Assembly (NCBI GenBank): GCA_949289995.1
Contig: CASEQE010000046.1
Location: 1 to 63,017, forward strand
Direction of reading: 5' to 3'
Length of the DNA stretch: 63,017 bases
From: an uncultured Peptococcaceae bacterium
GTDB taxonomy: Bacteria > Bacillota > Dehalobacteriia > UBA4068
This document shows, piece after piece, positions 5,021-42,619 of this stretch. Within the stretch, counting starts at the first letter, position 1, and the number at the start of each line of letters is the position of its first letter. Position numbers and translations under genes: made by a program. The notes under the pieces are model-generated. The model was given only the letters and a program-made list of their open reading frames with translations, had not been told where the DNA came from and searched no databases.

Positions 5021-6085
5021 TTATTCCTCTTTCAAACGTTGGGCCTGGTCGGAAGTGATCAAAGCGTCGATAATCTCGTCCAATTCTCCTTCCAAAATCC
5101 ATTCCAATTTATGCAAAGTCAAACCGATACGATGATCGGTAACCCGTCTTTCGGGAAAATTATAGGTGCGGATCCGCTCCGACCGATCGCCGGAACCCAC
5201 CTGGCTTTTGCGGGCGGAGGCTTCGCTGGCGGCGGCCTCTTCCTGCATTTTTTCCATCACCCGGGCCCGCAAAACCCGCATACCTTTGGCTTTGTTTTTA
5301 ATCTGGCTTTTTTCATCCTGGCAGGATACCACGATACCGGTGGGAATATGGGTAATGCGCACCGCGCTTTGGGTGGTATTGACGCATTGACCGCCGGGGC
5401 CGGTGGCGCAAAATAAATCAATACGGATATCGTTGGGAGAAATATCTACTTCCACTTCCTCCGCTTCCGGCAATACCGCTACCGTTGCCGCGCTGGTATG
5501 AATACGGCCGCTAGATTCCGTGGCCGGTACCCGCTGCACCCGATGGACGCCGCTTTCAAATTTTAAACGGCTATATGCGCCTTTGCCTTCGATCAATAAA
5601 ATAATCTCTTTCAAACCGCCGATATCGGTAAAATTGGCATCCATAATTTCCATATGCCAGCGATGTTTTTCCGCATAGCGGCTATACATTTTATATAAAT
5701 CATTGGCAAACAAAGCCGCTTCGTCGCCGCCAGTACCGGCGCGAATTTCCAAAATCACGTTCTTTTCATCGTTGGGATCCTTCGGCAGCAACAACAATTT
5801 CAATTGCCGCTCCAAATCCGCCAACTTGTTCTGGTTTTCCTCAATATCCATTTTGGCCAGCTCCACCAATTCCGGATCGCTTTTTTCGCTGATGATTTGC
5901 TCCGCGCCGGCAATTTCCTCGCCCACGGCCAAATATTGACGGTAGGCCAAAACCACGTCCTCCAAATCCGCACGGGCTTTTACCAATTTCTGCCATTGGC
6001 TTTGATTGGCTATTATTTCCGGATCCCCTACTTGTTGGGTAAGAGCATCGTATTTTTCAGCTAATGCAGCCAATTTTTCAATCAT
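5021..6085 (-). CDS. prfA: Peptide chain release factor 1
   Basis: [17 protein letters not shown] (PxT anticodon-mimic of RF1), [15 protein letters not shown]; alternative start at 6106. Confidence 0.96.
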
Positions 6086-6158
6086 TCCTGATGTTCCTTC
6101 AATCATTCTTGCTATTTCCTTCCTCTTGTTTGATTTTTAGGCAATTCTGCCATTTGCA

Positions 6159-27763: not shown

Positions 27764-28744
27764 TTATTCCCATTCGATGGTGCCGGTAGGTTTGGGCGTC
27801 AGGTCGTAGCAAACCCGATTGACGCCTTTTACTTCGCTGGTGATGCGCTTGGTGATATGCTGCAGCAGGGCAAAGGGCACGTCTTCTACAGTGGCGGTCA
27901 TGGCGTCTTGGGTATTGACGGCGCGGATAATTACCGGCCATTCATCGGACCGCTTGTTGTTGCGTACGCCAACGCTTTTAAAATCGGGGATTAGGGTGAA
28001 ATATTGCCATACCTTGCCTTCCAGGCCGTTTTTGGCAAATTCCTCTCGAAGGATCGCATCCGATTCCCGTACCGCTTCCAGGCGGTCGCGGGTGATGGCG
28101 CCTAGGCAGCGCACGCCCAGGCCGGGGCCGGGGAAGGGTTGACGGTAGACCATACCGGCCGGCAGGCCCAAAGCGTCGCCCACCACCCGAACTTCATCTT
28201 TAAACAGCAGGCGCAGAGGTTCTACCAGCTCAAACTGCAAATCTTCCGGCAGGCCGCCTACATTGTGATGGGCCTTTACGCCGCCGCTTTCCAGAATGTC
28301 GGGATAGATGGTGCCCTGCGCCAGAAAATGGATATCTTCCTGCTTGCGGGCTTCTTCTTCAAATACGCGAATGAATTCGGCGCCGATGACCTTCCGTTTT
28401 TGCTCCGGATCGCTGATCCCTTGGAGCTTGTCCAAAAAGCGATCCACCGCATCCACATAGACCAAATTCGCCTTCATCTGGTTGCGGAACACCTCCACAA
28501 CCTGTTCCGGCTCGCCCTTGCGCAGCAGGCCATGGTTCACATGAACGCATACCAGCTGTTGGCCGATGGCGCGGATCAGCAGCGCTGCCACCACAGAGCT
28601 GTCTACGCCGCCGCTGAGCGCCAAAAGTACTTTTTTATCGCCTACCTGGGCTTTGATTTCATTCACCTGTTCCTGGATGAATTGCTCCGCCAGGGCAGGT
28701 GTGACGATTCGCTCCATGTTTTCCGGGCGCTTATTGTTTGCCAT
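27764..28744 (-). CDS. guaA: GMP synthase, ATP-pyrophosphatase plus dimerisation domains only (subunit B-like)
   Basis: ALSGGVDSSV, QGTIYPD, HHNVGGLP, PFPGPGLG, PKPTGTIEWE; no N-terminal GATase domain. Confidence 0.9.
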   Translation of the reverse strand: MANNKRPENMERIVTPALAEQFIQEQVNEIKAQVGDKKVLLALSGGVDSSVVAALLIRAIGQQLVCVHVNHGLLRKGEPEQVVEVFRNQMKANLVYVDAVDRFLDKLQGISDPEQKRKVIGAEFIRVFEEEARKQEDIHFLAQGTIYPDILESGGVKAHHNVGGLPEDLQFELVEPLRLLFKDEVRVVGDALGLPAGMVYRQPFPGPGLGVRCLGAITRDRLEAVRESDAILREEFAKNGLEGKVWQYFTLIPDFKSVGVRNNKRSDEWPVIIRAVNTQDAMTATVEDVPFALLQHITKRITSEVKGVNRVCYDLTPKPTGTIEWE

Positions 28745-28823
28745 AGTCCGTTCCTCCTTTATCACGGATCGCTGTTTGTTTTGTCATATCATATGGTATA
28801 GCATTTTTTTACTGAATTTAGAC

Positions 28824-28852
28824 AATATACCACAGGGAATTTTATTTGTCAA
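28824..28852 (-). promoter_or_regulatory. sigmaA promoter for guaA
   Basis: TTGACA-17 bp-TATATT with extended TG. Confidence 0.7.
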
Positions 28853-28925
28853 CCGAAAGTCCATTTCTTCCCGCCGTTGGTTTTTGCCGCAGAAGGCCGG
28901 CGCCGGCTTTTTGGCTTTTGCCGGT

Positions 28926-28956
28926 AAAAAGGGCCCGGCCGCTAAGCGGCCGAGCC
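28926..28956 (-). terminator. Terminator after the A2M-like gene
   Basis: Minus strand GGCTCGGCCGC-TTA-GCGGCCGGGCC-CTTTTT. Confidence 0.65.
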
Positions 28957-28997
28957 GGTATAGGTACGATAGGTTGCGCGTTGCGCCGTTGCTTGCC

Positions 28998-31900
28998 TCA
29001 GCGGATGGTTACGGTTTGCTCTTGGCCGCTGCAGCGGGAAGCGGCCTGGCTATGGCGCAGGTATGGGGCTTCGGCAATAAAACTGCCGCCGCTTTGTACT
29101 CGGGCCGCATAGGATACCTGGCCGGAAAGTTCTTCTCCCGCTTCTTTATACACGGTGAAGGTCAAAACCTGCCCTTGCTTACCGCAAAACCAAAATTCTT
29201 TGCCGGCAGCGTTTTGGGTGTTAAAAATTTGCTTGATAAAATCCAATCCTGCCGGCAGATAATCGACAATTTCATAGCTGCCTGCCGGCGCTTGGGCAGG
29301 GATGTGATAGTTCAGGGTGACGGTTACCGGCTGATCGGCAGCAAGCGTTGCCGCTCCCTGGTTGTAGCTACGGCTGAGTTGCAGATTCCAGGCGTCGCTT
29401 CCGGCGTCTTCAGGATAGCCCGGTTCCCAGGAGGCCACGGTTACGCCAATTTCCCCTTCCCAGGAGAGCAGTTGCCATTGGGCCGCCTGCTGTTGGCTAA
29501 GCGTAACGCCCCATACGCCCTGCCGGGTTAGATCTACCGTGATTTCCTCGCCGTCCAGGCTGTAGCAAAAGACGGCTGCTTCGCCAGCCTGGCTGAGATG
29601 GGCTTGCAAAATCAGCAAACGTTGCAACAGGTAATATTCATCTTGCGGATGATTATCCTCCACATATTCCAGCAAGGCCTGGGCGCCAGGAAGATCATAA
29701 ATTCCCGCCAGCAGCGCCAGATTGGCCGTATCTTCTATGGATTGATTGGCGGCAAAAACCAAATTGCCGTCTTCATCGCTGTATAGGGCGAAGATTTCTT
29801 CCGCCAAAGGTTGGGCGGCAGCGCCGTCTCCCAAATCGGTTAAGGCTAGGGCCAAGTAGATTTGGCTTAGCGCATCGGTTTCCCCGCCGGCTTGTTCCAC
29901 ATGGGCGATCAGGTCGTTTAATACCGGTTGATTCAAAGCGGCCAAACCCCAATAGGCCAGGGCGGTTTGCTGATTCCAGGCTTGGCCTGTAAAGCTTTGG
30001 AAATAAGCGGCCAGCGCCTGTTGGTCAAAGCAGTCTGGCGCTACCGCGGCGGCGAGAACCGATACCAACAAATCGCTTTGGCTATAGGTAAAGGAGGATA
30101 TGCCGCCGTCTGCGCGCTGATATTGGCTAAGCAGAGCGATTTCTGCAGATTGATCCTCTTGGCCGATTACGCCCTGTTCCGGGAAAAAGGCGGCCAAATC
30201 CCGTTTGGCAACCAAAGCCGCCAAACGTTGTTCCAGCCGGGCGCCGCTTTGCTGGGAAAGATCCAACAAACCGCTGACAACCTGTTGCCGCCAGCTGGGG
30301 TAGAAATATAGGCGCAACACGTCGCTTTGCCGTTGGGGCAGAACAAAATCTTCGCTTAGAATATAATCGTCTCTTTGTTCATGGCCGGCTAAAGTATCTA
30401 CCACCTGGAAGGAATAGATGATACGGTCGGTGTGGTTGCCGTATTGGGCGGCTATTTCCAGGGTATAATCGCCGCTTTGGCTAAAGGCGGGCAGGGTGAT
30501 TTCCGTCCAAGCGCCGATATCTCCTTCCGCCGTGGTATTGATATCCAATTGGGGCAGGGAAATACGATAGGAAACTTTTTCCCCGTCTATCGTCTCCTGA
30601 GCGGCGGCCCGCAGGCCCACGTCCAATTGATCTCCCAGCCGGTATGCGTCGGCAATCCGGGCTTCGGCAAAAAAGTCCAAGCTGGCCTGGAGGGTAAGTT
30701 CTTCATAGGCGCAAACCGGTCCTTCGGCATAGCCTTGGGCGGTGACCCGCCAGCCGGTTACGTCATCGGGCAAGGTAAATTCCAGGCTGGCCCGGCCTTG
30801 AGCGTCGGCGTCCACTACCGCGAAATAGGCCATATCGGCAAAATCTTCCCGGCTGCCGCCGTCGCCGGCGCCTCCGGCCTCAGCGCTTTCAAAGGTTTGG
30901 GCGTCGCCTTTGGTTGCGTTTAAGGCAAAAATTTCATAGACAAAGGGATAGTAGTCATCTACTATGCCGGAGACAATATCGTTTTGGTTTTCCGCAATAG
31001 ACAGCAGGCTTTCGTCCACCACGCTAACGGCAATTTTTCCTGCCAGGGGCTGACCGTTTTGATCGGTGAAGCGCAGATCCAAGGTAACCCGATCCCCTGG
31101 TTGGTAAGAGGGTTGATCCGGGGTGATTTGAATATTGCCCCGGTAATCCTCTGGATCTTGGCAGGCCTGATAGGGCAGGACGTCGGTATAGGCGCCGTTT
31201 TGATACGCTACCGCGCTGATATAGATATTGGGCGTATCGGCGGCGGAAAATTGCCGCTGGTAGAGGTTTTCTTCCGTGGTTTGATAATCGATAATCTGGT
31301 TTTGGCTGGCGAAAAAGAGCATTTGATCCATTTTTTCCGCCGCCATCGCCGTACCGCCACCGTCGGTAACCTGTAGGTTGATGGTTTCGCCTTGACGGTA
31401 AAAGTGGTCTTGTTCTTTATCCTGGCTTTGCAGCAGAAAGATTTGATATTCGTTTTGCCGCCACAGATAGAACACCCGTTTCAGCGGATTGCCGGCGGCG
31501 TCTTCGCCGGTGATTTCCAGACGGTAATTGTCCTGGGGATAGGCCAGGGTTCCGCTGAAGGAGATTTCCCGGGTATCGTTCAAAGTCAGCTCAAACTGGT
31601 CTTCTGTTTCTTCATAGCTGCGGTAGACGGTATGTTCTTCCAATTGTTGGGTATAGGCGTTGTATTGGCTTTCCGTTTCCTGGCGGTAACCGTTATGGAT
31701 CAGGGTGGCGGTTAGCTTCAGCGGTTGAGCAAGGGAGGTATAGACTTGTTCTTTTAATGCTTCATCCGTTTCATAGGGCTGCAAATTGGCGATATCCACC
31801 GAGTAGCCCTGCAGGGTCAGTTGATAGCCGTCGCCTTGATTGGTCAATTCCCCTTCTACTTCCACTTGGTTGAGGAACACGTCGCAATAGCCTTCGGCAT

Positions 31901-34187
31901 AGATTTCGCCCCCTTCCGGCAAAGTGGCGCGTACAAACATTCCCGCCGGGTAGAGAATAGAATCCCAGCCCAAAACATCGCCGTGTATGGTCGTTTCCAC
32001 CGTGGCCTGGCCGTTTCTGTCGGTAACGATTTGCGCCTCCGGCTGATCCCAGAAGCTATAGGTTAGGGCTATGCCGGCGGCGGGGGTGCCGTCGAAATAG
32101 GCGGCTTCTATGGTCCAGGTTATGCTCTCTCCCACCATTGCCGCCTGGCGGTCGCAGCTTACCTGTAGCTGATAGGAAGGCAAGTCGTAGTTGGCCACCT
32201 GGAAAAATACGCTGTCCAGCACCATTTCTCCGCTGACGGCTTCCAAAGTATAATAGCCTTCCTGCAATTGGGGCAATTGGATTTCTCCTTCATAAGTTCC
32301 GTCTTGCACCGGCAAATCCCAAGTCAAACTATTTCCATCTCCAGGCAAATTGCCGCCGCTTAAACGGATTTCCACTTGGGAAATTTCTGCCGCATTTTGT
32401 TTAGCTTCGGCTACGCCAAACAGATATACCGTGTCGCCGGGACGGTACAGGGTGCGATCGCTATAGAGGTAATGCCAATAGTCAAAGCGCAGCGAGTCGG
32501 TTTCCCCCTGATTGTATTGACGGAACAAGGCCTGCATATTTATGGCTGCCGCCGCCAGGGTATGTTGGCCGTTGTCGATAATATATACGGTACGGCCTTG
32601 GTTGACGCCGTCGGGCAATGACAGAAGGGCTGTGCCTTGGTCGTCGGTTTTGGCGCTTTCCTTGGCGTCGTAGATGTGAATTTGCGCCGTAGCCGCTTCT
32701 TCGCCGTTATGCACCCAAAGCAGCGCATCGGTTTCTCCCTGGGCAATATATACGGCCAAGGGGGAGACGGTGAACAGGGCCTGTTTGGTTTGGCCGTACC
32801 AGGTTATTTCCGCCAGATAACTGCCTTCCGGCAGAGCTTGGGCCAGATTGATTTGGAATAGGGAGCTTTGCTCCGAAGATTGTACCGGAGCTATGGTAAA
32901 GCTAGCGTAGGTTTGCAGCGCCGCCGTGGCCAATTTTTGTTCGCCGGCGTTGCTGGTCCAGAAATAATTTCCATAGCGTTGGGCCAAAGCCGCCGCATAT
33001 TGTTCCGTTTGTTCATAGGCGTACAGGGTAACTTCCGCCGTGGGAATTTCCCCGTTTTTTTCTTCGCCCCAAGCGTATAACTGGAGGCAGGGGATGGTAT
33101 CCGGGGCAAAATTGCTTTCGTCGTTTTCGATTTGCCAGGATACCGCGGTTTCCTCGCCGGCTTGACGATCCGGGGCGGTTTGAAAACGATACACTTTTTC
33201 TTCGCCCAAAACGCTGCCGCTGGCGGCGCTTAGGGAAGCGTCCAAGGTGATTTCATAGACGGTTTCGCCGGCTAAGGGCTGTTGGGGAATGAAAATCAGC
33301 CGTCTGCCTTGCACCTGCCATTGGCCGGGAATTTCCGGGAAAATGCTTGCGGCTTTCGCCGCCGCATCGTCGATTTCCTGATTGAAGGTTATGGTTACGC
33401 CGCTAGATACGTCCACCCACACGCTTAAGTCTTGGGGATGAACCGTTTCCACGGCAAAGGGGCTTTCTGTTTGGAAGGCCCAGGTATGGGAGGCCCGCAA
33501 AGGCAAACCTGCCAAATACCGCTCCGGATCGAAGCTCAGGGTATAGACTTTTTCTTCGGTCAAAGGATTTTCGGGGGTGATCACCGCGGAAACGCCGCCG
33601 TTTTCCAACGACAGTTGGTATTCGGTGGCAGGGGTGATGATCAAAGCCTGTTGCACCAGTTCTTCGCTTAAGGATTGTTCGGCGGTAATGACGAAGCTTT
33701 CCACGGCGCCGGCGGCATTGGTTTGGGCGGTCACCTCTATGGCGCCGCTAAAGCTGCTGGGCAAGCCGTCGCTGCCGTGAAAATACTGCAGGACGCTGAA
33801 CACGCCGATAAACATGATCAGTGCCGCCGCCAAAGAGGCCAGCCAAGTGCGGCTGATTTTGGGAGAACGGCCGCCTTTGCCGCCTTTGCCGCCGGCTACC
33901 AGGCTGGGCCGCCGTTTGCAGGCCTTCTTATCCGCCGCCGTTTCCGTAAAGGCCGCCGTTTCCGTGGAGGCTTGGCAAGCCTGTTCCTCTGGGGTGAGAA
34001 TACCGCGCATATCCGTCAATTCCGCCCAGCGTAGTTGATCCCAGTCTGGTTTTTCTCCTTTTTCCGCCAGATAGGCGGATTGGCGTAAGACGTGCTCAAA
34101 CCAGGAAGGCGCGGTTTGTTTGGCCACATCCTCCCCGGTTTGCCGAAAATACTCGTTTAGCACATGTTCCACCCGTTGTGCTTCCAT
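28998..34187 (-). CDS. Membrane-anchored alpha-2-macroglobulin-family protein: cytoplasmic N-terminus, TM, Ig-like domains, MG domains; no thioester Cys; probable anti-sigma factor
   Basis: SDRTLYRPGDTV (MG2), YQPGDRV, VSVVDESLL, REDFADMAYF...FTLPDDVTGWRVTA (A2M domain), YQRADGG, IVDYLPAGL; single TM near residues 115-136. Confidence 0.82.
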   Translation of the reverse strand: MEAQRVEHVLNEYFRQTGEDVAKQTAPSWFEHVLRQSAYLAEKGEKPDWDQLRWAELTDMRGILTPEEQACQASTETAAFTETAADKKACKRRPSLVAGGKGGKGGRSPKISRTWLASLAAALIMFIGVFSVLQYFHGSDGLPSSFSGAIEVTAQTNAAGAVESFVITAEQSLSEELVQQALIITPATEYQLSLENGGVSAVITPENPLTEEKVYTLSFDPERYLAGLPLRASHTWAFQTESPFAVETVHPQDLSVWVDVSSGVTITFNQEIDDAAAKAASIFPEIPGQWQVQGRRLIFIPQQPLAGETVYEITLDASLSAASGSVLGEEKVYRFQTAPDRQAGEETAVSWQIENDESNFAPDTIPCLQLYAWGEEKNGEIPTAEVTLYAYEQTEQYAAALAQRYGNYFWTSNAGEQKLATAALQTYASFTIAPVQSSEQSSLFQINLAQALPEGSYLAEITWYGQTKQALFTVSPLAVYIAQGETDALLWVHNGEEAATAQIHIYDAKESAKTDDQGTALLSLPDGVNQGRTVYIIDNGQHTLAAAAINMQALFRQYNQGETDSLRFDYWHYLYSDRTLYRPGDTVYLFGVAEAKQNAAEISQVEIRLSGGNLPGDGNSLTWDLPVQDGTYEGEIQLPQLQEGYYTLEAVSGEMVLDSVFFQVANYDLPSYQLQVSCDRQAAMVGESITWTIEAAYFDGTPAAGIALTYSFWDQPEAQIVTDRNGQATVETTIHGDVLGWDSILYPAGMFVRATLPEGGEIYAEGYCDVFLNQVEVEGELTNQGDGYQLTLQGYSVDIANLQPYETDEALKEQVYTSLAQPLKLTATLIHNGYRQETESQYNAYTQQLEEHTVYRSYEETEDQFELTLNDTREISFSGTLAYPQDNYRLEITGEDAAGNPLKRVFYLWRQNEYQIFLLQSQDKEQDHFYRQGETINLQVTDGGGTAMAAEKMDQMLFFASQNQIIDYQTTEENLYQRQFSAADTPNIYISAVAYQNGAYTDVLPYQACQDPEDYRGNIQITPDQPSYQPGDRVTLDLRFTDQNGQPLAGKIAVSVVDESLLSIAENQNDIVSGIVDDYYPFVYEIFALNATKGDAQTFESAEAGGAGDGGSREDFADMAYFAVVDADAQGRASLEFTLPDDVTGWRVTAQGYAEGPVCAYEELTLQASLDFFAEARIADAYRLGDQLDVGLRAAAQETIDGEKVSYRISLPQLDINTTAEGDIGAWTEITLPAFSQSGDYTLEIAAQYGNHTDRIIYSFQVVDTLAGHEQRDDYILSEDFVLPQRQSDVLRLYFYPSWRQQVVSGLLDLSQQSGARLEQRLAALVAKRDLAAFFPEQGVIGQEDQSAEIALLSQYQRADGGISSFTYSQSDLLVSVLAAAVAPDCFDQQALAAYFQSFTGQAWNQQTALAYWGLAALNQPVLNDLIAHVEQAGGETDALSQIYLALALTDLGDGAAAQPLAEEIFALYSDEDGNLVFAANQSIEDTANLALLAGIYDLPGAQALLEYVEDNHPQDEYYLLQRLLILQAHLSQAGEAAVFCYSLDGEEITVDLTRQGVWGVTLSQQQAAQWQLLSWEGEIGVTVASWEPGYPEDAGSDAWNLQLSRSYNQGAATLAADQPVTVTLNYHIPAQAPAGSYEIVDYLPAGLDFIKQIFNTQNAAGKEFWFCGKQGQVLTFTVYKEAGEELSGQVSYAARVQSGGSFIAEAPYLRHSQAASRCSGQEQTVTIR

Positions 34188-34192
34188 AGAGC

Positions 34193-34729
34193 TTACGCTC
34201 CTTTCATCGCTTCCTTTTGCTTTTGCGCATCGTTGGCAAGCAATAGCGAACGCAATTCACCGATGGCGCGGTGCAGCCGGGATTTCACAGTGCCTTCGGG
34301 AATATTCAGCACGGCGGCGATTTCCGCATATTCGTAGTTGAGATAATAACGAAGCAGCAGCGGCTCCCGATAATGTATAGGGAGTGCGGAAACGGCTTGC
34401 CGTACTGCCAGCTGTTCCGCTTGGCTGATTTGCCCGCTTTCGCCGCAGGATAGTTCCAAAGGAGATTCCACGGGGATTTCCCGGCGTTTCTTTTCCTTCA
34501 GCCGGGTTTTGCAAATATTAATCAATACCCGTTTGCTCCAGGCGGGAAAAGCTGCTTCCTCCCGTATACCGGCGCTTTTTTCCATAATGACCACCGATAA
34601 TTGGGATACGGCATCCATACTGTCGGCTTCGTTGCCCATAAACGAATAGGCCAAACGATAGTATTGGTTGCGGTTGGCAATCACATAATCCAGAAAACGT
34701 TCGCATTGCTCTTTATTTTGAATGTCCAT
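34193..34729 (-). CDS. ECF RNA polymerase sigma factor (SigV-like)
   Basis: Region 2 YRLAYSFMGNEADSMDAV...WSKRVLINIC; region 4 EIAAVLNIPEGTVKSRLHRA. Confidence 0.93.
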   Translation of the reverse strand: MDIQNKEQCERFLDYVIANRNQYYRLAYSFMGNEADSMDAVSQLSVVIMEKSAGIREEAAFPAWSKRVLINICKTRLKEKKRREIPVESPLELSCGESGQISQAEQLAVRQAVSALPIHYREPLLLRYYLNYEYAEIAAVLNIPEGTVKSRLHRAIGELRSLLLANDAQKQKEAMKGA

Positions 34730-34814
34730 AGAGCCTCCTTAAGAGCTCCTATCAATAGGAGGTAAAATAGCCTGCGCTTTGTTCCCAAGGAAAACGATTT
34801 TTCTTAAACGTTTC

Positions 34815-37007
34815 TTAATAATTGGCTTCCGGAGCGTTGGACGCCGGTTGGTTGTCTTCCGGCGGATTCAGTAAGCCGTAACGGGTGGTGTCGTAGCGAT
34901 CCTGATCCAGATATTTTACGATGTAATACTGGTGATAATCCAATTCCATAAAACTATTATATTGGGCTACGTCGGAGACGGCGCTTTCATTAAGAATCCG
35001 CGCTATGTCTTCAGACGTATCGTAGACGGTTTCGGTTTCGTTGCCGTCATCGTCCGTTTGATAGTGGATGATACGGCGAATATCCTCCGGCCGGTCCTGC
35101 CAGATCATATTGTCGTATCCCAAATCTGCCAAAGCGGCCAAGGTTTGTTCAAAACAAGGGTACAGGGGATAGCAATAATAGACGTAGGCTTGGCTGTTTA
35201 GCTGTTCTAGATTGGCGTCGCCGTCTATATCCTGTATGTAACTGCGAAAAGACAAGGTGCCGATGGGTTGATTGCGCCGCATATATTCTGGGGTTAGGTT
35301 TTTCAATTCTGTTTCAAAAGCCGTGAGCAGAGGGGACAATTTTTCCGCCTGCCATCTTAGAAATTGGGGATCGTCTTTCCATTGGTTGTAACGATAGTCC
35401 ACAAAGGAATATATACTTTCCAGACGCACGTTTTGCGGATTTTGTTGAAATAGCAAATATTGTCCATCCAAGAAATTGCGGCTGCTATAAATTACGTCTA
35501 ATTCTTGGGCAATATCTGCCAAGGGAAGGGTGACGTTTACATATTTGCGGGCGGTTTGGCTGCCGTCTTTGAAGGTATATAGGAGATAGCAGCCGAAGAC
35601 TTGGCGATAGGCGGCTTGGTTTGCGTCTTCGTCTTGGTCTGGATCTTGGTTTTTTTGCGCTTGTTCCGCGGCCATTAGTTTTTTCTGTATGGATATGGCG
35701 GCGGCGATTTCTTCTTCCGTGGTTAGCGGGCCTTGGGCCAATTCCTTGCGAAGTTCTTCCGGGGTAGAGGAGCGCATGGAAAAATCGTCTTGGGCCACGT
35801 TGATGATATAGTCTTCGTAAACATAACTGGCCACCCCGTCGAGGCGGATTTCCACCTGGGCGGTTTGTTCCAAGGTAGGCGTAAAGCGGTTGAAACCGGC
35901 GACGTCGAAAATATTTACGCCGATGGCGGCCGCCAAACAGAGGCAGAACACGGCCAACCCCCGGAGATGCCGTTTGTAAGCTTTAAAATCTCCTTGAAGA
36001 ACGATTTCAAAGGTTTGGCAGGCCAAAACGCCGCCGATCAAACAGCCGAACAGCAGCCAACCATAGGGCAAGCCGGCCAAAGTAGCGCCGCCGGTTTCCT
36101 GCAACAACGCCGCCAGCCCCAAAGCGGCCCATAACGCCACGATATATTTTAGTAGCGGCTCCGCCCAGCGAAAGGTCACCGCCCGGCCGGCGGCTTCCGA
36201 AGGCCGGCGCAAATGTAGGGCCAAAGCGGCGGCGGCCAATAGCGCCGTGCCGGCGCCGATCCATAGATAGTCCGTAGCCAGCAGCTGATTTTCTTTAGCG
36301 GCCTGTATATAGCGGGCTAAAGGGCTGCTCCAAAAGAGAGGGGTTTGCCAATCGTATAATTCCCCGTAAAAGTTGGGATAAAAACAGGACGCCAGCTTGC
36401 GGATAATCCAGATGAAACTGGGAAAAACGCCCAGAAAAAACAGGGTTAAAGCGGTGGATATGGCCTGTATTCCTGTTAATTCCGTAGCCAGCGCCGCGGT
36501 GAAAAACAGCGCCAGGGAAAACAGCAGATGATTTGCCAAACCGGTCAGTACGGGTAAGCCCTGCATCAAGGGAGCCATGCCCATAATCCAGGCTACCAAT
36601 AAGGCCAAAAGCAAATTTAGCGCATAGGCGCTCCATAAGGAAAGCAAGGCGGCGGCGCTGCGGCTGAAAAACAGACGGCCGCGGGATATGGGCAGGGAAT
36701 GATAAAAATCCACCTGTTTTTTATCGTTGAGATAGGCGAAAAATGCCCAGGCCACCATTAAAGAACCGGCGGTGGTCACGCATAGCGTCGGTATATTGGC
36801 CAAACCAAATAATTCCTGCAAAAGCCTGGCGATTTGTTCGCTTTCCAGGACGCTTTCCGCCCCTTTTTGCCAATGGATATGGTTTTGTAGGGTCAGGGCG
36901 CAATGTACCGGCAAGGCGAAAAAATAGGCGATAAACGACCAGGCGAAAGCCCAAGGTTTTCCGCCGGCGGTGCGCAGGGTTTTACAGAAAGAGGGTTTGA
37001 AAATCAT
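34815..37007 (-). CDS. ABC transporter permease with a large C-terminal soluble domain
   Basis: About 10 hydrophobic segments; DFYHSLPISR motif; overlaps the ATPase gene. Confidence 0.8.
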   Translation of the reverse strand: MIFKPSFCKTLRTAGGKPWAFAWSFIAYFFALPVHCALTLQNHIHWQKGAESVLESEQIARLLQELFGLANIPTLCVTTAGSLMVAWAFFAYLNDKKQVDFYHSLPISRGRLFFSRSAAALLSLWSAYALNLLLALLVAWIMGMAPLMQGLPVLTGLANHLLFSLALFFTAALATELTGIQAISTALTLFFLGVFPSFIWIIRKLASCFYPNFYGELYDWQTPLFWSSPLARYIQAAKENQLLATDYLWIGAGTALLAAAALALHLRRPSEAAGRAVTFRWAEPLLKYIVALWAALGLAALLQETGGATLAGLPYGWLLFGCLIGGVLACQTFEIVLQGDFKAYKRHLRGLAVFCLCLAAAIGVNIFDVAGFNRFTPTLEQTAQVEIRLDGVASYVYEDYIINVAQDDFSMRSSTPEELRKELAQGPLTTEEEIAAAISIQKKLMAAEQAQKNQDPDQDEDANQAAYRQVFGCYLLYTFKDGSQTARKYVNVTLPLADIAQELDVIYSSRNFLDGQYLLFQQNPQNVRLESIYSFVDYRYNQWKDDPQFLRWQAEKLSPLLTAFETELKNLTPEYMRRNQPIGTLSFRSYIQDIDGDANLEQLNSQAYVYYCYPLYPCFEQTLAALADLGYDNMIWQDRPEDIRRIIHYQTDDDGNETETVYDTSEDIARILNESAVSDVAQYNSFMELDYHQYYIVKYLDQDRYDTTRYGLLNPPEDNQPASNAPEANY

Positions 37008-37881
37008 AACCGGCTACCTCCGTTTCGTAAATAAAGGCTTCTTCCAGGCTGATCGGCAACATTTCCATATAAATAGGATCTTTATCGGCGATCCGGCGGC
37101 GAATTTCTTCCTTTTGGCCGCGGAAAATCAAAGTATACATACGGCCGCTTTGTTTGAAATTGATCAATTGCATCCCGACGAAAGCACGAGGATAAACCGG
37201 GTAGGGGAAAACCGCCTGCACTTTATGGAGCCCGCTTTTTAAGTCGTCCAACTCCTGGGCCAACAACAATCCCCCTTGATACAATAGGCCGATATGATCG
37301 CAAATATCCTCCAGTTCCCGTAAATTATGGGAGGCGAGAACCGGCGTCAATCCTCGGGAGGCCACTTCTTCAGCAAGCAGGCTTTTCACTGTGCGGCGCA
37401 TAACCGGATCCAAACCGTCCATGGTTTCGTCGCAGTATAGATAAGGCACGTTGGCGCATAAGGCCAGCAATGCCGCTAATTGTTTTTTCATCCCTTTGGA
37501 GAAGGCGGCGATTTTGCGGTTGGCGTCTAAATGCAAAGCGTTTAAAAATTTGCGAAACCGTTGGCTGTCGAAAGCAGGATACATGCCCCGATAATAATCT
37601 GCCATTTCTCCCGGGGTGGCGTTGGGAAAGAAATATGGATCGTCGGCTACATAAACCAGGCGTTTTTTGACGGCTTGGTTTTCGTATACCCGGGCGCCGT
37701 CGATTTCCACAGAGCCGGAATCCGGCCGATAAACGCCGCTAAGCAGGCGCAAAAAGGTACTTTTTCCCGCGCCGTTGGTTCCTAGCAGGCCGAATACCCC
37801 GCCGGAGCGTATGTTTACCGAAACATGATCCAGCGCTTGCAGCGGCCCGAAGCTTTTGCATAAGTCTTTGGTTTCAATCAT
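36982..37881 (-). CDS. ABC transporter ATP-binding protein (YtrB-like)
   Basis: GTNGAGKST, FSKGMKKQ, DETMDGLD, SHNL, SLEEAF. Confidence 0.92.
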   Translation of the reverse strand: MIETKDLCKSFGPLQALDHVSVNIRSGGVFGLLGTNGAGKSTFLRLLSGVYRPDSGSVEIDGARVYENQAVKKRLVYVADDPYFFPNATPGEMADYYRGMYPAFDSQRFRKFLNALHLDANRKIAAFSKGMKKQLAALLALCANVPYLYCDETMDGLDPVMRRTVKSLLAEEVASRGLTPVLASHNLRELEDICDHIGLLYQGGLLLAQELDDLKSGLHKVQAVFPYPVYPRAFVGMQLINFKQSGRMYTLIFRGQKEEIRRRIADKDPIYMEMLPISLEEAFIYETEVAGYDFQTLFL

Positions 37882-38273
37882 TTTTCTTCGCCCCCTTTGG
37901 CCGCGGTTTCTTCTTCGTATGCCCGATGGCAACAGGAAATCACGTCTTCCTGAGGGATATTGAGACGGCGGGCTTCCACGGCGTCATCAAATAGCCTCTC
38001 CAGCAGCTCCAAGCGTTTTTTGCGCAGCAATTTGCCGGATTCCTGGCAGATAAACGCCCCCCTGCCCGGCAGGGTGAAAATAACCCCTCGAGATTCCAGC
38101 TCGCCATAGGCTTTCTGGATGGTGTTGGGATTGATGGAAAGCTCGCTGGCCAAAGCCCGTACCGAAGGCAAACGGCTTTCCGGAGCCAAAACGCCGCATA
38201 AAGTTAGGCGTTCTATGTTTTCTACGATTTGTTGATACAGGGGTTTGTCGCTGCGATAATCAATGCTAAACAT
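37878..38273 (-). CDS. GntR-family regulator, YtrA subfamily
   Basis: PLYQQI, LPSVRALA, INPNTIQKAY, GRGAF; short C-terminus; heads an ABC operon. Confidence 0.92.
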   Translation of the reverse strand: MFSIDYRSDKPLYQQIVENIERLTLCGVLAPESRLPSVRALASELSINPNTIQKAYGELESRGVIFTLPGRGAFICQESGKLLRKKRLELLERLFDDAVEARRLNIPQEDVISCCHRAYEEETAAKGGEEK

Positions 38274-38340
38274 GGTTCCTCCTCGTCTTCCTGAGGCGCG
38301 CTGGCGCCGGGGGAAATCCCGCTGGATTCTATCGTTTAAC

Positions 38341-38402
38341 TGTACCATGTATTATAGTGTACTAACACATGTAGTATAGCTGAGTCAAAAGCCCGTTGTC
38401 AA
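38341..38402 (-). promoter_or_regulatory. sigmaA promoter overlapped by YtrA-type operator(s)
   Basis: TTGACA (38397-38402)-18 bp-TATACT (38373-38378); palindromes TGTACTA-7-TAGTATA (38358-38378) and TGTACCA-7-TAGTGTA (38341-38361). Confidence 0.7.
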
Positions 38403-39282: not shown

Positions 39283-42200
39283 TTAGCGTAAGGCGAAGGT
39301 GTACACGGCTTTGGCGCCATGGTCATCGGTTACCGTTACGTCGATATCGTCCAAATCGTCGGTATCTACGTCGATTTCATACAGATAGAAGGTGCTGGAG
39401 TAGCTTTGGCGGCGAATGGTTTTGCCGTCGTATTTGACGCTTACCGTATAATCGTCATCATCAAAGTAAACGTAGAGATACAGGGTTTTTTCATCGTTGC
39501 CGATACGGACGGAGTAGCGGTTATCTTCCGGGCGGAAATCGTTTTTGCTAATATAGGTTTCGCTTTTGCCCAACAATTTCATATCCACGTCGAAATCGCT
39601 TTGTGCATCCGAAGCGGCGTCGTTTGCATTGTATCCTTTATTGGTGTTGATATATACGGTAGCATTGCTGTATTGAATATTGAAATCAAACAGGGCCGCC
39701 AAATCCCGCAGCAAGAAATAGTTGTAGCCGTCGATATTATAGGCGGTGGGGCTGACATAGTCGCCGTTCAGGGACACGGTTTGTTTCGATACCACAGCCT
39801 TGTTGTAGAAGTTGGGTACGGTCAATTCCCCGCCGACGCTGGTATATCCATAGCCGCTGCGCAGGGAGATCAGGCGGGTGTAATCATTGTAGCTGATCGA
39901 GAATTGTTTGGCGGTGCCGTCCAGCAAATAGGCGATGGAACGCAGTTTGACAAAGTTGTTGCCGTTGATATTATAGGCGGGAATGGTGATGGTGCGGCCA
40001 TTGTTTACGGAAATGTATTGGCTGCTGGGTACGATAGAGGCCACGCTGCCATCGGTTTGCCGGTATACGTTCACATAATAATGTTTGCTGCCTACCTGGA
40101 AATCAAATTCGTTCAGGCCGTAATTCAAATTGTAGGAGGCGCTGTTGTTTTTGCTTACCGCATTGCCGCCGTCCTTGGCGATTTTCACCGTGGAAGAGGA
40201 AGAGAAGTTGAAGGTAATCGTGGAAGAGCTGGCGGATACGCTGGCGGTATAATTATAAACCGTAGAGCGGAAGCTGGGGCTCAGCGTCACTTTTACCGAA
40301 TTGACATAGGCGTTGAGGGAGCTTAAAACGCCGCTTTCTTTGCTCAAATCCACAATGTATTTTTCACTGTCTTCCCGGTTTTCCGCATAAACCGTTATGG
40401 TAACCTTGTTGTAATCATCGGGGTCAAAAGCCCAATAACTGCCGGTCATCAATTCATCGTTGACAAATATCAACATATCCCGACCTGCGTCTGCGTAGAG
40501 ATAAACGGTTTGATTGGAATTTGTATAATACAGGGTATAATCGGTTTTGGAGGAACGGAAGGCCGGGCTTAAGTCCATATCGTAGCTGGAAGACGTGCTG
40601 CGTTTGCTACGGAAGGCCAAATCGTCCAGTTCCGCCAAATCATCGTCGTTCCGGTCTGCATAGTAGAAGGTGATGGTATAATCCCGGTTGTCTACGCTAA
40701 ATTCCACGGTTTCCTGATCCCCCGCGGGAATGGAAATCACTTTATTATATTGATCATCGCTCAAAGTGACGTCGGAACCTTCATAGACGAAATCCACATA
40801 TTTGTCGCTAAAGCTTAGGCGCATATAGACTTTCATCGCCGTTCTATAATCGCTGTCATAGGGGATCAGCACGGCATAATCGGTGATATCCTTATCAAAA
40901 CGGGGATGGAGATTCAAGGCTGTAGCGGAAGAAGTTTTGTAGCTGTCGCCAATATTAACGTGGATATCTTCCAGCTCTTCGTCGCTGGTATAATCTTCGT
41001 CATAAAGATCAAAAACATAGGTTCGGCTTTCGCCGGTGCGGCGGTCTTCCGCGATTATCCGCAATATGCCCAGATCACGATAATCCACAGGGATTTCATA
41101 ATAATAGTAGCTGCTGCTATAATCGTCCCGGCGAATGGTGCGGCCGTCGTATTTTACCGTGACGTCATAATCGTCGTCGTCAAAATAAACGGTCAGTTCC
41201 AGATTTTCCACATCCCGGTTGAGATACAGATTATAGCTGGTTTTTTCATGATCGAAGCGGCTTTTGCTGAGATAGGTGTCGCCGTCGTCGCCTTTGATTT
41301 GTACGGACAGATCAAAAGGAGAGCTTTCCCGCTGCAAAGAGATGGTATAATGCATAAATGCCGTCTCGTCGTTTTGGGCGTAAACTCGAACCCTGATGTC
41401 GGACAATTGGCCGGAGCCAAGGGCGATGGTATAAGCGCCATTGGCGGCGGTTATTTCCTGATCGCCATAATACACTTTTACGGCGCAACCGGCTTTGGCG
41501 GTAGGCGTAACCGTTACACTGGTTATGTTGCTGGGGATTTGGCGGATGAATCTTTGCAGGTCTTGTGCCTGAGCCAGGGCAAAATCGTCGGAGCTGATAT
41601 AGGTTTTACCGTCGCTGCCGCTCATGGTTAAATTGGTCAGATCGGGAATGGCAACGCCCTGGCCGGTGATAGTCAGCGGGCTGGCCAAAGCCGCTTGGTC
41701 GACGATCAATTCGCCGGTTTGCCGATTATAGGTATAATCCGTGCCGGCGGTTAAGGTTTTTGTGCCGGCGGTAACGGTGATGGCGGCAGGCAAACGATAG
41801 CCGGCGGCCGCCGTCAGGGTGGCGGTATAATCTGCGTTTTTAGCAACTTTCTTCGCGTCGTTGCTGGTGGTGATGTTGGTCAATTGGTTGTTCACATTGA
41901 GCCAATCCGTAACTTTTACCGTATAAACCGCCGCGTCTTGCGCAGAGCCCGTAGTATTCAGGTAAACCGGTTTGGCAGCGTTTTTCACCTGTTCGGCGCG
42001 AATCCACAATACGAAGGTCTTTTCCCCCGTGGCCCCGGCCTGTTGCGCTTCGGTAACGTCCACCTGGGTCAATTGGTTAAAGCTGTTTCCGTCGGCGCTG
42101 TAATACAGGTTGGTAATCGGTTGATCGGTAGTGATCAACAGGCCCAACCATTTGGATTCCCCCGTTTGGCCGGGATTACTAGAGGTAAAAGCGGTCATTT

Positions 42201-42399
42201 CATCCAATACCGCTTCTACGGATATGTCTTTTTCATTGAGGCTTACTGTGGCATGCTGGGAATTGGCAAAGAATTCCCCTGTGCCCTGAGCCAGGGAAAC
42301 GTCGGTTACCGATACGCCGTCGGCCAGCGCCGCCGGTCCCCAGGCTAGAACCAATGCCAAGGCCAGGAAAAACACGAGTAACGTTTTTTTCATTTTCAT
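39283..42399 (-). CDS. Large secreted/surface protein with cadherin-like beta-sandwich repeats and a twin AYNIxG domain
   Basis: Signal peptide MKMKKT...ALA; repeated LxPxF...Y modules; AYNINGNNFVKLR and AYNIDGYNYFLLR. Confidence 0.75.
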   Translation of the reverse strand: MKMKKTLLVFFLALALVLAWGPAALADGVSVTDVSLAQGTGEFFANSQHATVSLNEKDISVEAVLDEMTAFTSSNPGQTGESKWLGLLITTDQPITNLYYSADGNSFNQLTQVDVTEAQQAGATGEKTFVLWIRAEQVKNAAKPVYLNTTGSAQDAAVYTVKVTDWLNVNNQLTNITTSNDAKKVAKNADYTATLTAAAGYRLPAAITVTAGTKTLTAGTDYTYNRQTGELIVDQAALASPLTITGQGVAIPDLTNLTMSGSDGKTYISSDDFALAQAQDLQRFIRQIPSNITSVTVTPTAKAGCAVKVYYGDQEITAANGAYTIALGSGQLSDIRVRVYAQNDETAFMHYTISLQRESSPFDLSVQIKGDDGDTYLSKSRFDHEKTSYNLYLNRDVENLELTVYFDDDDYDVTVKYDGRTIRRDDYSSSYYYYEIPVDYRDLGILRIIAEDRRTGESRTYVFDLYDEDYTSDEELEDIHVNIGDSYKTSSATALNLHPRFDKDITDYAVLIPYDSDYRTAMKVYMRLSFSDKYVDFVYEGSDVTLSDDQYNKVISIPAGDQETVEFSVDNRDYTITFYYADRNDDDLAELDDLAFRSKRSTSSSYDMDLSPAFRSSKTDYTLYYTNSNQTVYLYADAGRDMLIFVNDELMTGSYWAFDPDDYNKVTITVYAENREDSEKYIVDLSKESGVLSSLNAYVNSVKVTLSPSFRSTVYNYTASVSASSSTITFNFSSSSTVKIAKDGGNAVSKNNSASYNLNYGLNEFDFQVGSKHYYVNVYRQTDGSVASIVPSSQYISVNNGRTITIPAYNINGNNFVKLRSIAYLLDGTAKQFSISYNDYTRLISLRSGYGYTSVGGELTVPNFYNKAVVSKQTVSLNGDYVSPTAYNIDGYNYFLLRDLAALFDFNIQYSNATVYINTNKGYNANDAASDAQSDFDVDMKLLGKSETYISKNDFRPEDNRYSVRIGNDEKTLYLYVYFDDDDYTVSVKYDGKTIRRQSYSSTFYLYEIDVDTDDLDDIDVTVTDDHGAKAVYTFALR

Positions 42400-42619
42400 A
42401 GAAATCCCCTCCCTAAAAATTGAATATATTTTTATATTTTCCAATGTGCCTTTTCGCCAAATTTTCCCCCACCAGCGACGAATTGGCCCTTTCTATTAGC
42501 AAGACTGTTGGCCAAGGGTTTTTGTTCCTGTGTTGCCAATATATGGAAAATTCTTTGTCGGTGAAATTGAAATTGCCGCCGCCTTGGCCGGTTGTCTCTA
42601 GGGGTCCGCCGGCCGGGGT

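Follow-up and report, generated by a model that had tools for sequence, protein, structure and literature searches.

Can an alpha-2-macroglobulin (A2M), a fold that in bacteria serves as a protease trap, also act as the sensor of a transcriptional switch? This question is raised by two adjacent genes at positions 28998–34729 of a 63,017-nucleotide stretch of DNA (hereafter the window) from an uncultured Peptococcaceae bacterium (contig CASEQE010000046.1 of assembly GCA_949289995.1). A preliminary description, made from the sequence alone, read the pair as a SigV-like extracytoplasmic function (ECF) sigma factor followed by a membrane protein of anti-sigma topology, whose A2M-type ectodomain has lost its thioester and might sense proteases. 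Our analyses indicate that the two genes quite probably encode a cognate ECF sigma/anti-sigma pair with the A2M ectodomain as sensor or effector. That this is a genuine ECF/anti-sigma system, conserved, recurrent, so far undescribed and equipped with an A2M sensor module, is well supported. Protease sensing by this system is an attractive and directly testable proposal.

Gene pair and operon layout

The two open reading frames (ORFs), of 178 and 1729 amino acids (aa), lie on the minus strand where the preliminary description had placed them and are separated by the 5-bp gap that it reported. The TAA of the sigma gene is followed by five bases and then by the ATG of the 1729-aa ORF, and a GGAG-type ribosome-binding site precedes both start codons. 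The features of the pair are:

34193–34729, minus strand: ECF sigma factor gene, 178 aa (Pfam region 2 and region 4_2 matches, TIGR02937 above cut-off)
about 34481–34678, minus strand: sigma-2 region of the ECF gene (Pfam)
about 34262–34411, minus strand: sigma-4 region of the ECF gene (Pfam)
28998–34187, minus strand: gene for the 1729-aa putative anti-sigma/A2M-like protein, beginning 5 nt past the sigma stop codon

The 178-aa protein matches Sigma70_r2 (27.3 bits, cut-off 24) and Sigma70_r4_2 (64.1 bits, cut-off 25.7) of Pfam as well as the NCBIfam sigma70-ECF model TIGR02937 (68.1 bits, cut-off 42.9). Containing only the sigma-2 and sigma-4 regions, and with a length within about 170–200 aa, it conforms to the definition of ECF (group IV) sigma factors. 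The name SigV-like suits it as a description of resemblance, SigV being among the best NCBIfam matches, but not as a statement of orthology, because the SigV equivalog NF053879 yields 82.2 bits, below its cut-off of 190. No other NCBIfam equivalog model reaches its cut-off for this protein.

The N-terminus of the A2M-like protein as a predicted sigma-binding segment

The part of the 1729-aa protein that precedes the ectodomain is divided into three segments:

34047–34187, minus strand: predicted sigma-binding segment, residues 1–47 (clade-invariant A26, P27 and F30; complex model; selection)
33855–34046, minus strand: cytoplasmic linker, residues 48–111, poorly conserved and K/R/G-rich close to the membrane
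33780–33854, minus strand: single transmembrane (TM) helix, residues 112–136 (hydropathy; N-terminus predicted inside)

The N-terminus is hydrophilic, and in a hydropathy scan the earliest hydrophobic stretch of 19 residues begins at residue 110. A K/R-rich stretch precedes the TM helix, placing positive charges on its N-terminal side, and neither an N-terminal signal peptide nor a lipobox Cys can be read in the 1729-aa sequence. These results agree with the roughly 110 hydrophilic residues and one TM helix of the preliminary description. The predicted topology, a cytoplasmic N-terminal domain followed by one TM helix, is that of membrane anti-sigma factors.

This topology depends on translation starting far upstream of the membrane and not near the TM helix, and selection indicates that the upstream start is real. 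Compared with the nearest relative, residues 1–60 are 92% identical and have a ratio of non-synonymous to synonymous substitution rates (dN/dS) of 0.13, the lowest of all segments, versus 35% identity and a dN/dS of 0.47 for linker residues 61–111. Residues 1–60 are hence under strong purifying selection. No ATG is present between residue 61 and the TM helix. The N-termini of the clade to which the window belongs (clade A, see below) have in common L-x-x-[YF]-[FL] and an invariant A-P-x-x-F, with A26, P27 and F30 unchanged across 9 clade-A sequences, and L087, a third member of the genus, has the same segment layout. Two ECF-linked relatives, L048 and L052, carry ahead of their TM helix the Pfam domain zf-HC2 (PF13490; 29.5 and 33.5 bits, cut-off 22.2), the classical anti-sigma zinc finger.

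Binding of the sigma factor by the N-terminus is also predicted by structure modelling. The complex model of the sigma factor with residues 1–60 scored 0.79, versus 0.01 for the best of 3 controls. In a benchmark this mark was attained by 58 of 80 solved complexes and by 2 of 110 mismatched pairs, counts that are valid only roughly here because our own 9-row alignments were fed to the model. Separate runs share at least 87% of contacts, with a pLDDT of at least 75 for the partner. The modelled segment contacts both sigma-2 (sigma residues 6–50) and sigma-4 (residues 99–164), and the invariant A26, P27 and F30 touch sigma residues 17–24. Since sigma/anti-sigma complexes have already been solved, part of this outcome may reflect likeness to known structures. 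The model thus supports, without proving, that residues 1–60 bind the sigma factor.

Co-occurrence with ECF genes and evolution

The relatives scan covered one genome per species, and the best 80 of 378 relatives' loci were used. Six loci truncated by a contig end, three whose ORF is broken or short and one of 1469 aa were excluded, so that the analysed set comprises 70 full-length loci and the window (71 proteins). An ECF gene lies directly upstream on the same strand in 16 of the 70 relatives, with a gap of –19 to +47 nt. The linked loci seen all derive from uncultured genomes. In each of the 16 the TM helix begins at residue 40 or later (L006 and L007 have only 40 residues ahead of it), whereas none of the 47 signal-peptide-type relatives (TM helix at residues 0–31, or none found) has an adjacent ECF gene. 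The adjacency on which the preliminary description built its proposal is therefore conserved and tracks the N-terminal extension. As far as computation reaches, the sigma/anti-sigma reading thus withstands all three conditions that the preliminary description had named as refuting it (no interaction, a start near the TM helix, no conserved adjacency).

Seven relatives have an apparent TM start at or after residue 40 yet no ECF gene. L009, L024, L030 and L046 were rejected as extended forms, being longest-ORF artefacts in which an internal Met directly precedes a signal peptide. Extensions of 60–100 residues ahead of the TM helix are found at L018:5743-10953, L020:5890-11145 and L073:2503-7656, two of them from Chloroflexota and one from the candidate phyla radiation (CPR); that of L073 looks like a small helical domain with no relation to the anti-sigma motif. 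L029 and L065 contain an additional sigma-like ORF about 4.5–4.8 kb downstream, which is not adjacent to the A2M-like gene.

In a FastTree phylogeny of the 71 full-length proteins (1550 columns), the ECF-linked genes occupy three places. Clade A (support 1.0) consists of the window and 8 others, with the unlinked L009 within it. Clade B (support 1.0) is formed by L048 and L052 and is positioned deep in a clade of 46 tips (support 1.0), the rest of which is of the signal-peptide type. The clade C region contains poorly resolved CPR and Chloroflexota sequences, among which six linked members are scattered between unlinked ones. Identity of the clade-A sigma factors is 28–32% to those of clade B and 19–26% to those of clade C. 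Because these sigma sets are only 19–32% identical to that of the window and the anti-sigma domain of clade B is zf-HC2, another type, the comparison indicates that an anti-sigma module was fused to this A2M on at least two occasions.

The association was also followed from the sigma factor. Among 73 genomes of the window's class scanned for the sigma factor at E≤1e-25, 12 yielded a match. An A2M-like gene follows the sigma gene in all 9 genomes with at least 50% identity (the window's included) and is not found after the three matches at 34–37% identity. This reverse test is a consistency check and not independent evidence, because at least 6 of the 9 records had already been among the loci of the relatives scan.

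The ectodomain is an A2M without thioester

The extracytoplasmic part comprises about 1590 residues and begins within about 5–15 residues of the TM helix. Its features, in order from the membrane, are:

31491–33779, minus strand: N-terminal ectodomain, all-beta, residues 137–899, with two Big_5 immunoglobulin (Ig)-like and macroglobulin (MG)-type domains including MG2 at residues 573–662 (Pfam)
30999–31400, minus strand: A2M bait-region domain (A2M_BRD), residues 930–1063 (Pfam)
30852–30947, minus strand: predicted bait-like disordered hypervariable loop, residues 1081–1112 (pLDDT 25–41), directly before R-x-x-F-x-D
30615–30824, minus strand: A2M domain (PF00207), residues 1122–1191 (Pfam)
29595–30296, minus strand: helical thioester-domain (TED)-like module, residues 1298–1531 (about 12 helices in the AlphaFold2 (AF2) model)
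30228–30239, minus strand: R1317-L-E-Q replacing C-x-E-Q (hhalign; Arg invariant in 71/71)
29001–29573, minus strand: C-terminal beta-sandwich domains (CUB/MG8-like), residues 1539–1729 (AF2 model; profile match to the C-terminus of ECAM)

The Ig-like and macroglobulin domains of the preliminary description were recovered with Pfam, where MG2 (54.2 bits), A2M_BRD (35.8 bits), A2M (30.3 bits) and two stretches of Big_5, reaching residue 337, all score above cut-off; TED gave no Pfam match on the 1729-aa protein. A single-sequence phmmer search against the PDB found nothing, and a family profile was required. The profile of ten full-length relatives matches ECAM/YfhM (5a42, E 4.8e-21), Salmonella A2M, human A2M, TEP1, C5 and CD109. 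The AF2 model of residues 900–1729, built from a 71-row alignment, has a mean pLDDT of 84.4 and contains beta domains, the helical module at 1298–1531 and C-terminal beta sandwiches, with the TED-type module placed between CUB/MG-type beta domains. The best Foldseek matches of this 830-residue model are ECAM 5a42 (E 1.2e-34, TMq 0.56) and Salmonella A2M 4u48. Residues 137–899 are modelled as all-beta (pLDDT 87.0), and their best matches are Salmonella A2M 4u48 (E 2.8e-23) and ECAM 5a42, at TM-scores of 0.21–0.22, low values that are expected for a flexible chain of domains.

The replacement of the thioester by SGARLEQ was confirmed by both coordinates and alignment. SGARLEQ corresponds to residues 1314–1320 (window positions 30228–30248), and a profile–profile alignment (hhalign) of the 71 family members with 14 CxEQ-bearing bacterial A2Ms (probability 100, E 7.2e-66, 820 columns) sets R1317-L-E-Q onto C-x-E-Q. 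CxEQ is missing from the window protein (P0001) and from the full-length relatives P0003–P0012, and R1317 is invariant in all 71 family sequences. The ectodomain is therefore a complete bacterial A2M fold with Arg in place of the thioester Cys, and the thioester has been lost family-wide.

The flexible, bait-like segment singled out in the preliminary description corresponds to residues 1091–1112, with REDF next to it at 1113–1116 (about 30840–30917). It overlaps the sole long low-confidence segment in the AF2 model of residues 900–1729 (model residues 182–211, protein residues 1081–1110, pLDDT 25–41), immediately ahead of the R-x-x-F-x-D-T-A motif, which is conserved and marks the start of the A2M domain. 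Both length and sequence of the loop vary across the family, and in comparison with the closest relative it is 34% identical with a dN of 0.71. The bait-like loop is thus predicted to be disordered and exposed, and it is hypervariable and located at the expected place. The genome of the window has one A2M-domain gene only.

Memo-like genes beside the family

A gene for a Memo-like protein of about 300 aa lies directly downstream of the A2M-like gene in 22 relatives of clades A and C, whether ECF-linked or not, on the same strand and with a median gap of 6 nt. PF01875 was found in 6 of the 6 that were scanned. These loci include L003:10794-11687, L006:6403-7338, L012:7420-8394 and L065:10976-12877, plus 18 others. 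The Memo-like protein begins with what resembles a signal or lipoprotein peptide; its L065 version is fused to PGA_cap. The gene is absent at window positions 27764–28997 and from L001, and the 92%-complete genome of the window contains no PF01875 match.

Promoter and genome context

Upstream of the sigma gene one further element was recognised:

34758–34785, minus strand: putative ECF-type autoregulated promoter, with GGAAC (–35-like) and a CCTCC/TCTT-like –10 element about 17–20 nt downstream

All 10 distinct clade-A upstream regions contain a single GGAAC 51–63 nt before the sigma start, with a TC-containing element 17–20 nt on. The more precise pattern GGAAC-N19-TC occurs in 12 of 15 rows, which amounts to 7 of 10 distinct loci because five rows duplicate earlier loci; 2000 mononucleotide shuffles gave a mean of 0.065 and a maximum of 2. 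In the three loci without it, those of the window and its two closest relatives, the spacing differs by one base. The GGAAC element fits an autoregulated ECF promoter, a function that we infer from its sequence and position. A narrow promoter pattern has one match in the 1.83-Mb, 92%-complete genome, namely, the operon's own site, although this pattern rests on two sequences and is so narrow that other targets may escape it. For a looser motif, roughly 80 chance matches would be expected by our own estimate. The genome also encodes an M50 site-2 protease (213 bits).

Proposed mechanism and alternative explanations

How might such a pair work? In the scheme that we propose, the anti-sigma factor would be a single-pass membrane protein with a cytoplasmic N-terminus, its first ~45 residues acting as a clamp on the sigma factor between regions 2 and 4. 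Exogenous proteases would attack the ectodomain, with the bait loop as the point of entry, and an A2M-type rearrangement or further degradation would then bare a short juxtamembrane tether. The remaining stub would be cleared by regulated intramembrane proteolysis through the M50 site-2 protease. The freed sigma factor would transcribe its own GGAAC-type promoter, yielding new sigma factor and new single-use A2M, so that the consumed trap is replaced; re-expression of the operon would suit a single-use inhibitor. Given the pair, we put proteolysis of the ectodomain as the signal at rather less than an even chance. The full proposal, that evolution has at least twice independently, and with different ECF types, turned a suicide protease trap into an anti-sigma sensor whose consumption releases the sigma factor and leads to re-synthesis of the trap, is possible but on the unlikely side. 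If true, it would amount to a self-replenishing anti-protease shield and to the first transcriptional read-out of the A2M conformational switch, in both Bacillota and Patescibacteria (CPR).

Several points weigh against this interpretation, some at the level of the pair and others at the level of the signal. Residues 1–140 of the 1729-aa protein match no Pfam family at E≤1, so that no anti-sigma domain is recognised there. The nearest look-alikes of these residues in the protein Atlas (DUF4179, 0.77; RsgI_M, 0.76; zf-HC2, 0.75) all lie below 0.9 and are weak leads. L018, L020 and L073 carry plausible N-terminal extensions although no ECF gene lies next to them, and L009, which branches within clade A, lacks both; the A2M part therefore appears to work without a sigma factor as well. 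The reversed control of the narrow promoter pattern also gave 1 match in the genome, and nothing firm about a regulon follows from that pattern. If the bait were cut at residue ~1100, about 950 residues would stay attached to the membrane. Site-2 proteases, with their PDZ size filter, are not known to accept a stub of ~950 residues, so that either a further cut close to the membrane or a conformational relay would have to intervene. The secreted Memo-like gene conserved in 22 relatives makes a protease-centred role less sure, and the biochemical role of the family may not centre on proteases. We also know of no protease-trapping activity for the Arg-bearing family, although trapping is still conceivable without the Cys, because MagD traps its protease without a thioester.

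In one alternative the pair is genuine but the signal is not bait-loop proteolysis, the ectodomain sensing an envelope component, a ligand of its Ig-like or TED-like modules or a partner protein, and the A2M serving as no more than a stalk or binding platform. The Cys-to-Arg replacement, invariant across 71 members, hints at a non-classical function, a secreted Memo-like enzyme is conserved beside the gene in 22 relatives, and a bait cut by itself yields no site-2 substrate. Other modular anti-sigma factors sense by ligand binding, as in the case of RsiV with lysozyme and RsgI with polysaccharides. Yet the bait-like loop has been retained, exposed and fast-evolving as in protease-trapping A2Ms, the system is maintained in this genome although the Memo-like partner is absent from it, and the type II A2M MagD traps a protease without thioester (PMC5764988). 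We regard this alternative as a serious contender that nevertheless stays short of likely.

Two further explanations dispense with sensing or with the anti-sigma function itself. In a closed homeostatic loop, the anti-sigma factor would titrate the sigma factor, the operon would set the level of A2M, and the sole input would come from ordinary membrane-protein turnover. Such a loop would agree with the narrow promoter pattern, which matches only the operon's own promoter in the genome, and with the translational closeness of the two genes, 5 nt apart. However, a pattern taken from two sequences is too narrow to rule out further targets, signal-free ECF systems are unusual, and independent anti-sigma/A2M fusions with different sigma types suggest a selected sensory advantage; we consider the loop improbable. 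Even less can be said for a plain anchored or secreted A2M that merely happens to lie beside an ECF gene, its N-terminal 110 residues being untranslated or a mere tail, for which we see very little chance. Such an arrangement would account for the window N-terminus having no Pfam anti-sigma match and for the 47 of 70 family members that are of the signal-peptide type without an ECF gene. It is at odds with the presence of the extension in 16 of 16 ECF-linked loci against ECF adjacency in 0 of 47 signal-peptide-type loci, with the dN/dS of 0.13 over residues 1–60, with zf-HC2 in two linked relatives, with the complex model (0.79 versus 0.01) and with the lack of an ATG from residue 61 to the TM helix.

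Comparison with known systems

For a receptor-type anti-sigma factor, the closest analogy is SigV–RsiV (ECF30) of Bacillus subtilis, Clostridioides difficile and Enterococcus faecalis. RsiV undergoes site-1 cleavage and then cleavage by the site-2 protease, which releases the sigma factor. Like SigV–RsiV, the window system is a two-gene operon in which an ECF sigma gene precedes that of a single-pass anti-sigma factor with the N-terminus inside and a short N-terminal sigma-binding segment. In the proposed model the ectodomain would, as in RsiV, itself be the receptor, and release would proceed via site-1 and then site-2 cleavage. Unlike RsiV, which has a lysozyme-binding domain of ~200 aa, the window protein has an A2M ectodomain of ~1590 aa, and unlike SigV its sigma factor does not belong to the SigV equivalog (82.2 versus 190 bits). 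In their fusion of a sigma-binding module and one TM helix to interchangeable extracytoplasmic sensors, SigI–RsgI of cellulolytic clostridia and SigP–RsiP are also comparable, and RsgI_M is among the nearest named Atlas clusters for window residues 1–140 (0.76, a weak lead). Both differ from the window system in sigma families and in sensor domains. For RsiP, two reports describe site-1 and site-2 cleavage and the sensing of beta-lactams by the penicillin-binding protein (PBP) PbpP (PMC8844934, PMC8092216).

On the A2M side, the best sequence-profile and structural matches of the window ectodomain are type I A2Ms (ECAM/YfhM, Salmonella A2M), with which it shares MG, bait-region, A2M, TED-like helical and C-terminal beta domains as well as N-terminal membrane anchoring. 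Type I bacterial A2Ms are associated with pbpC. Unlike them, the window protein has RLEQ for CxEQ, a TM anchor placed after a cytoplasmic sigma-binding segment instead of a lipoprotein signal, no PBP neighbour, and a host known from a metagenome-assembled genome of Gram-positive-type Bacillota. Having no thioester, lipobox or PBP neighbour, it falls outside the type I definition. Absence of the thioester with retention of the A2M fold is shared with type II A2Ms (Pseudomonas aeruginosa MagD, Escherichia coli YfaS), although similarity to YfaS and MagD is remote, the matches covering 8–15% of the query at E 1e-9 to 1e-13. According to PMC5764988, MagD lacks the thioester and still traps its target protease non-covalently; its gene belongs to the mag operon of six genes, and MagA, MagB and MagF are its partners in the Gram-negative periplasm. 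The lack of a thioester noted in the preliminary description is thus confirmed but, with a type II example already described in the same source, is not new in itself. Pfam annotation of the neighbours revealed no mag-type operon partner beside the A2M-like gene, homologues of MagA, MagB and MagF not having been searched specifically. Beyond the missing thioester no other feature of the type II definition was recognised, and the window protein probably belongs to neither A2M type.

The statement of the preliminary description that no such system had been characterised stands as far as the literature could be searched: full-text searches found no paper linking anti-sigma factors to A2M domains. 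The main texts of PMC7826278, an ECF re-classification, and PMC7406223, an analysis of class I anti-sigma factors, mention neither macroglobulin nor A2M, and MG2 and Big_5 likewise have 0 occurrences in the main text of PMC7826278; the supplements of these ECF surveys, which list anti-sigma architectures per group, could still hold such a protein.

For ECF signalling, the system offers a sensor module with a known, drastic and protease-triggered conformational change, which makes the input testable, a rare situation among orphan anti-sigma ectodomains. For A2Ms, it extends the bacterial members to Gram-positive-type Bacillota and CPR bacteria, points to a third A2M lineage defined by an invariant Arg at the thioester position, and hints for the first time at signalling from an A2M to the cytoplasm. 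Swapping the bait loop, should it set specificity, would yield a programmable switch from extracellular protease to transcription. If the trigger is otherwise, the conserved and recurrent sigma/anti-sigma architecture still stands as a finding.

Neighbouring genes

The sigma/A2M-like pair is flanked by a GntR/ABC/DUF6449 unit and by nucleotide-synthesis genes (Pfam). The former, at 34815–38348 on the minus strand immediately 5' of the sigma promoter, encodes a GntR regulator, an ABC ATPase and a 730-aa DUF6449 membrane protein, and the same 730-aa protein is encoded upstream of the ECF gene in 4 loci (the window, L001, L003 and L079). A table in PMC7826278 lists the Firmicutes group ECF258 with a DUF4179 anti-sigma factor as 'associated to ABC transporters', which serves here as a lead.

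Two other ORFs of the window deserve mention. On the minus strand at 6159–9113, after the release-factor-1 gene, lies a 984-aa ORF whose membrane-type N-terminal part gives way to three long arrays of tandem peptide repeats. The repeated units are one of 11 residues (about 20 copies), one rich in Q/K (5 copies) and the 5-residue unit G-N-K-S-Q (about 25 copies). These arrays account for the extreme AT skew of –0.418 at 6001–8000. The 1053-aa protein encoded at 39283–42444 (minus strand) contains two Cadherin-like beta-sandwich domains and a weakly matching copper-amine-oxidase N-terminal (stalk-type) domain, and is probably a cell-surface protein.

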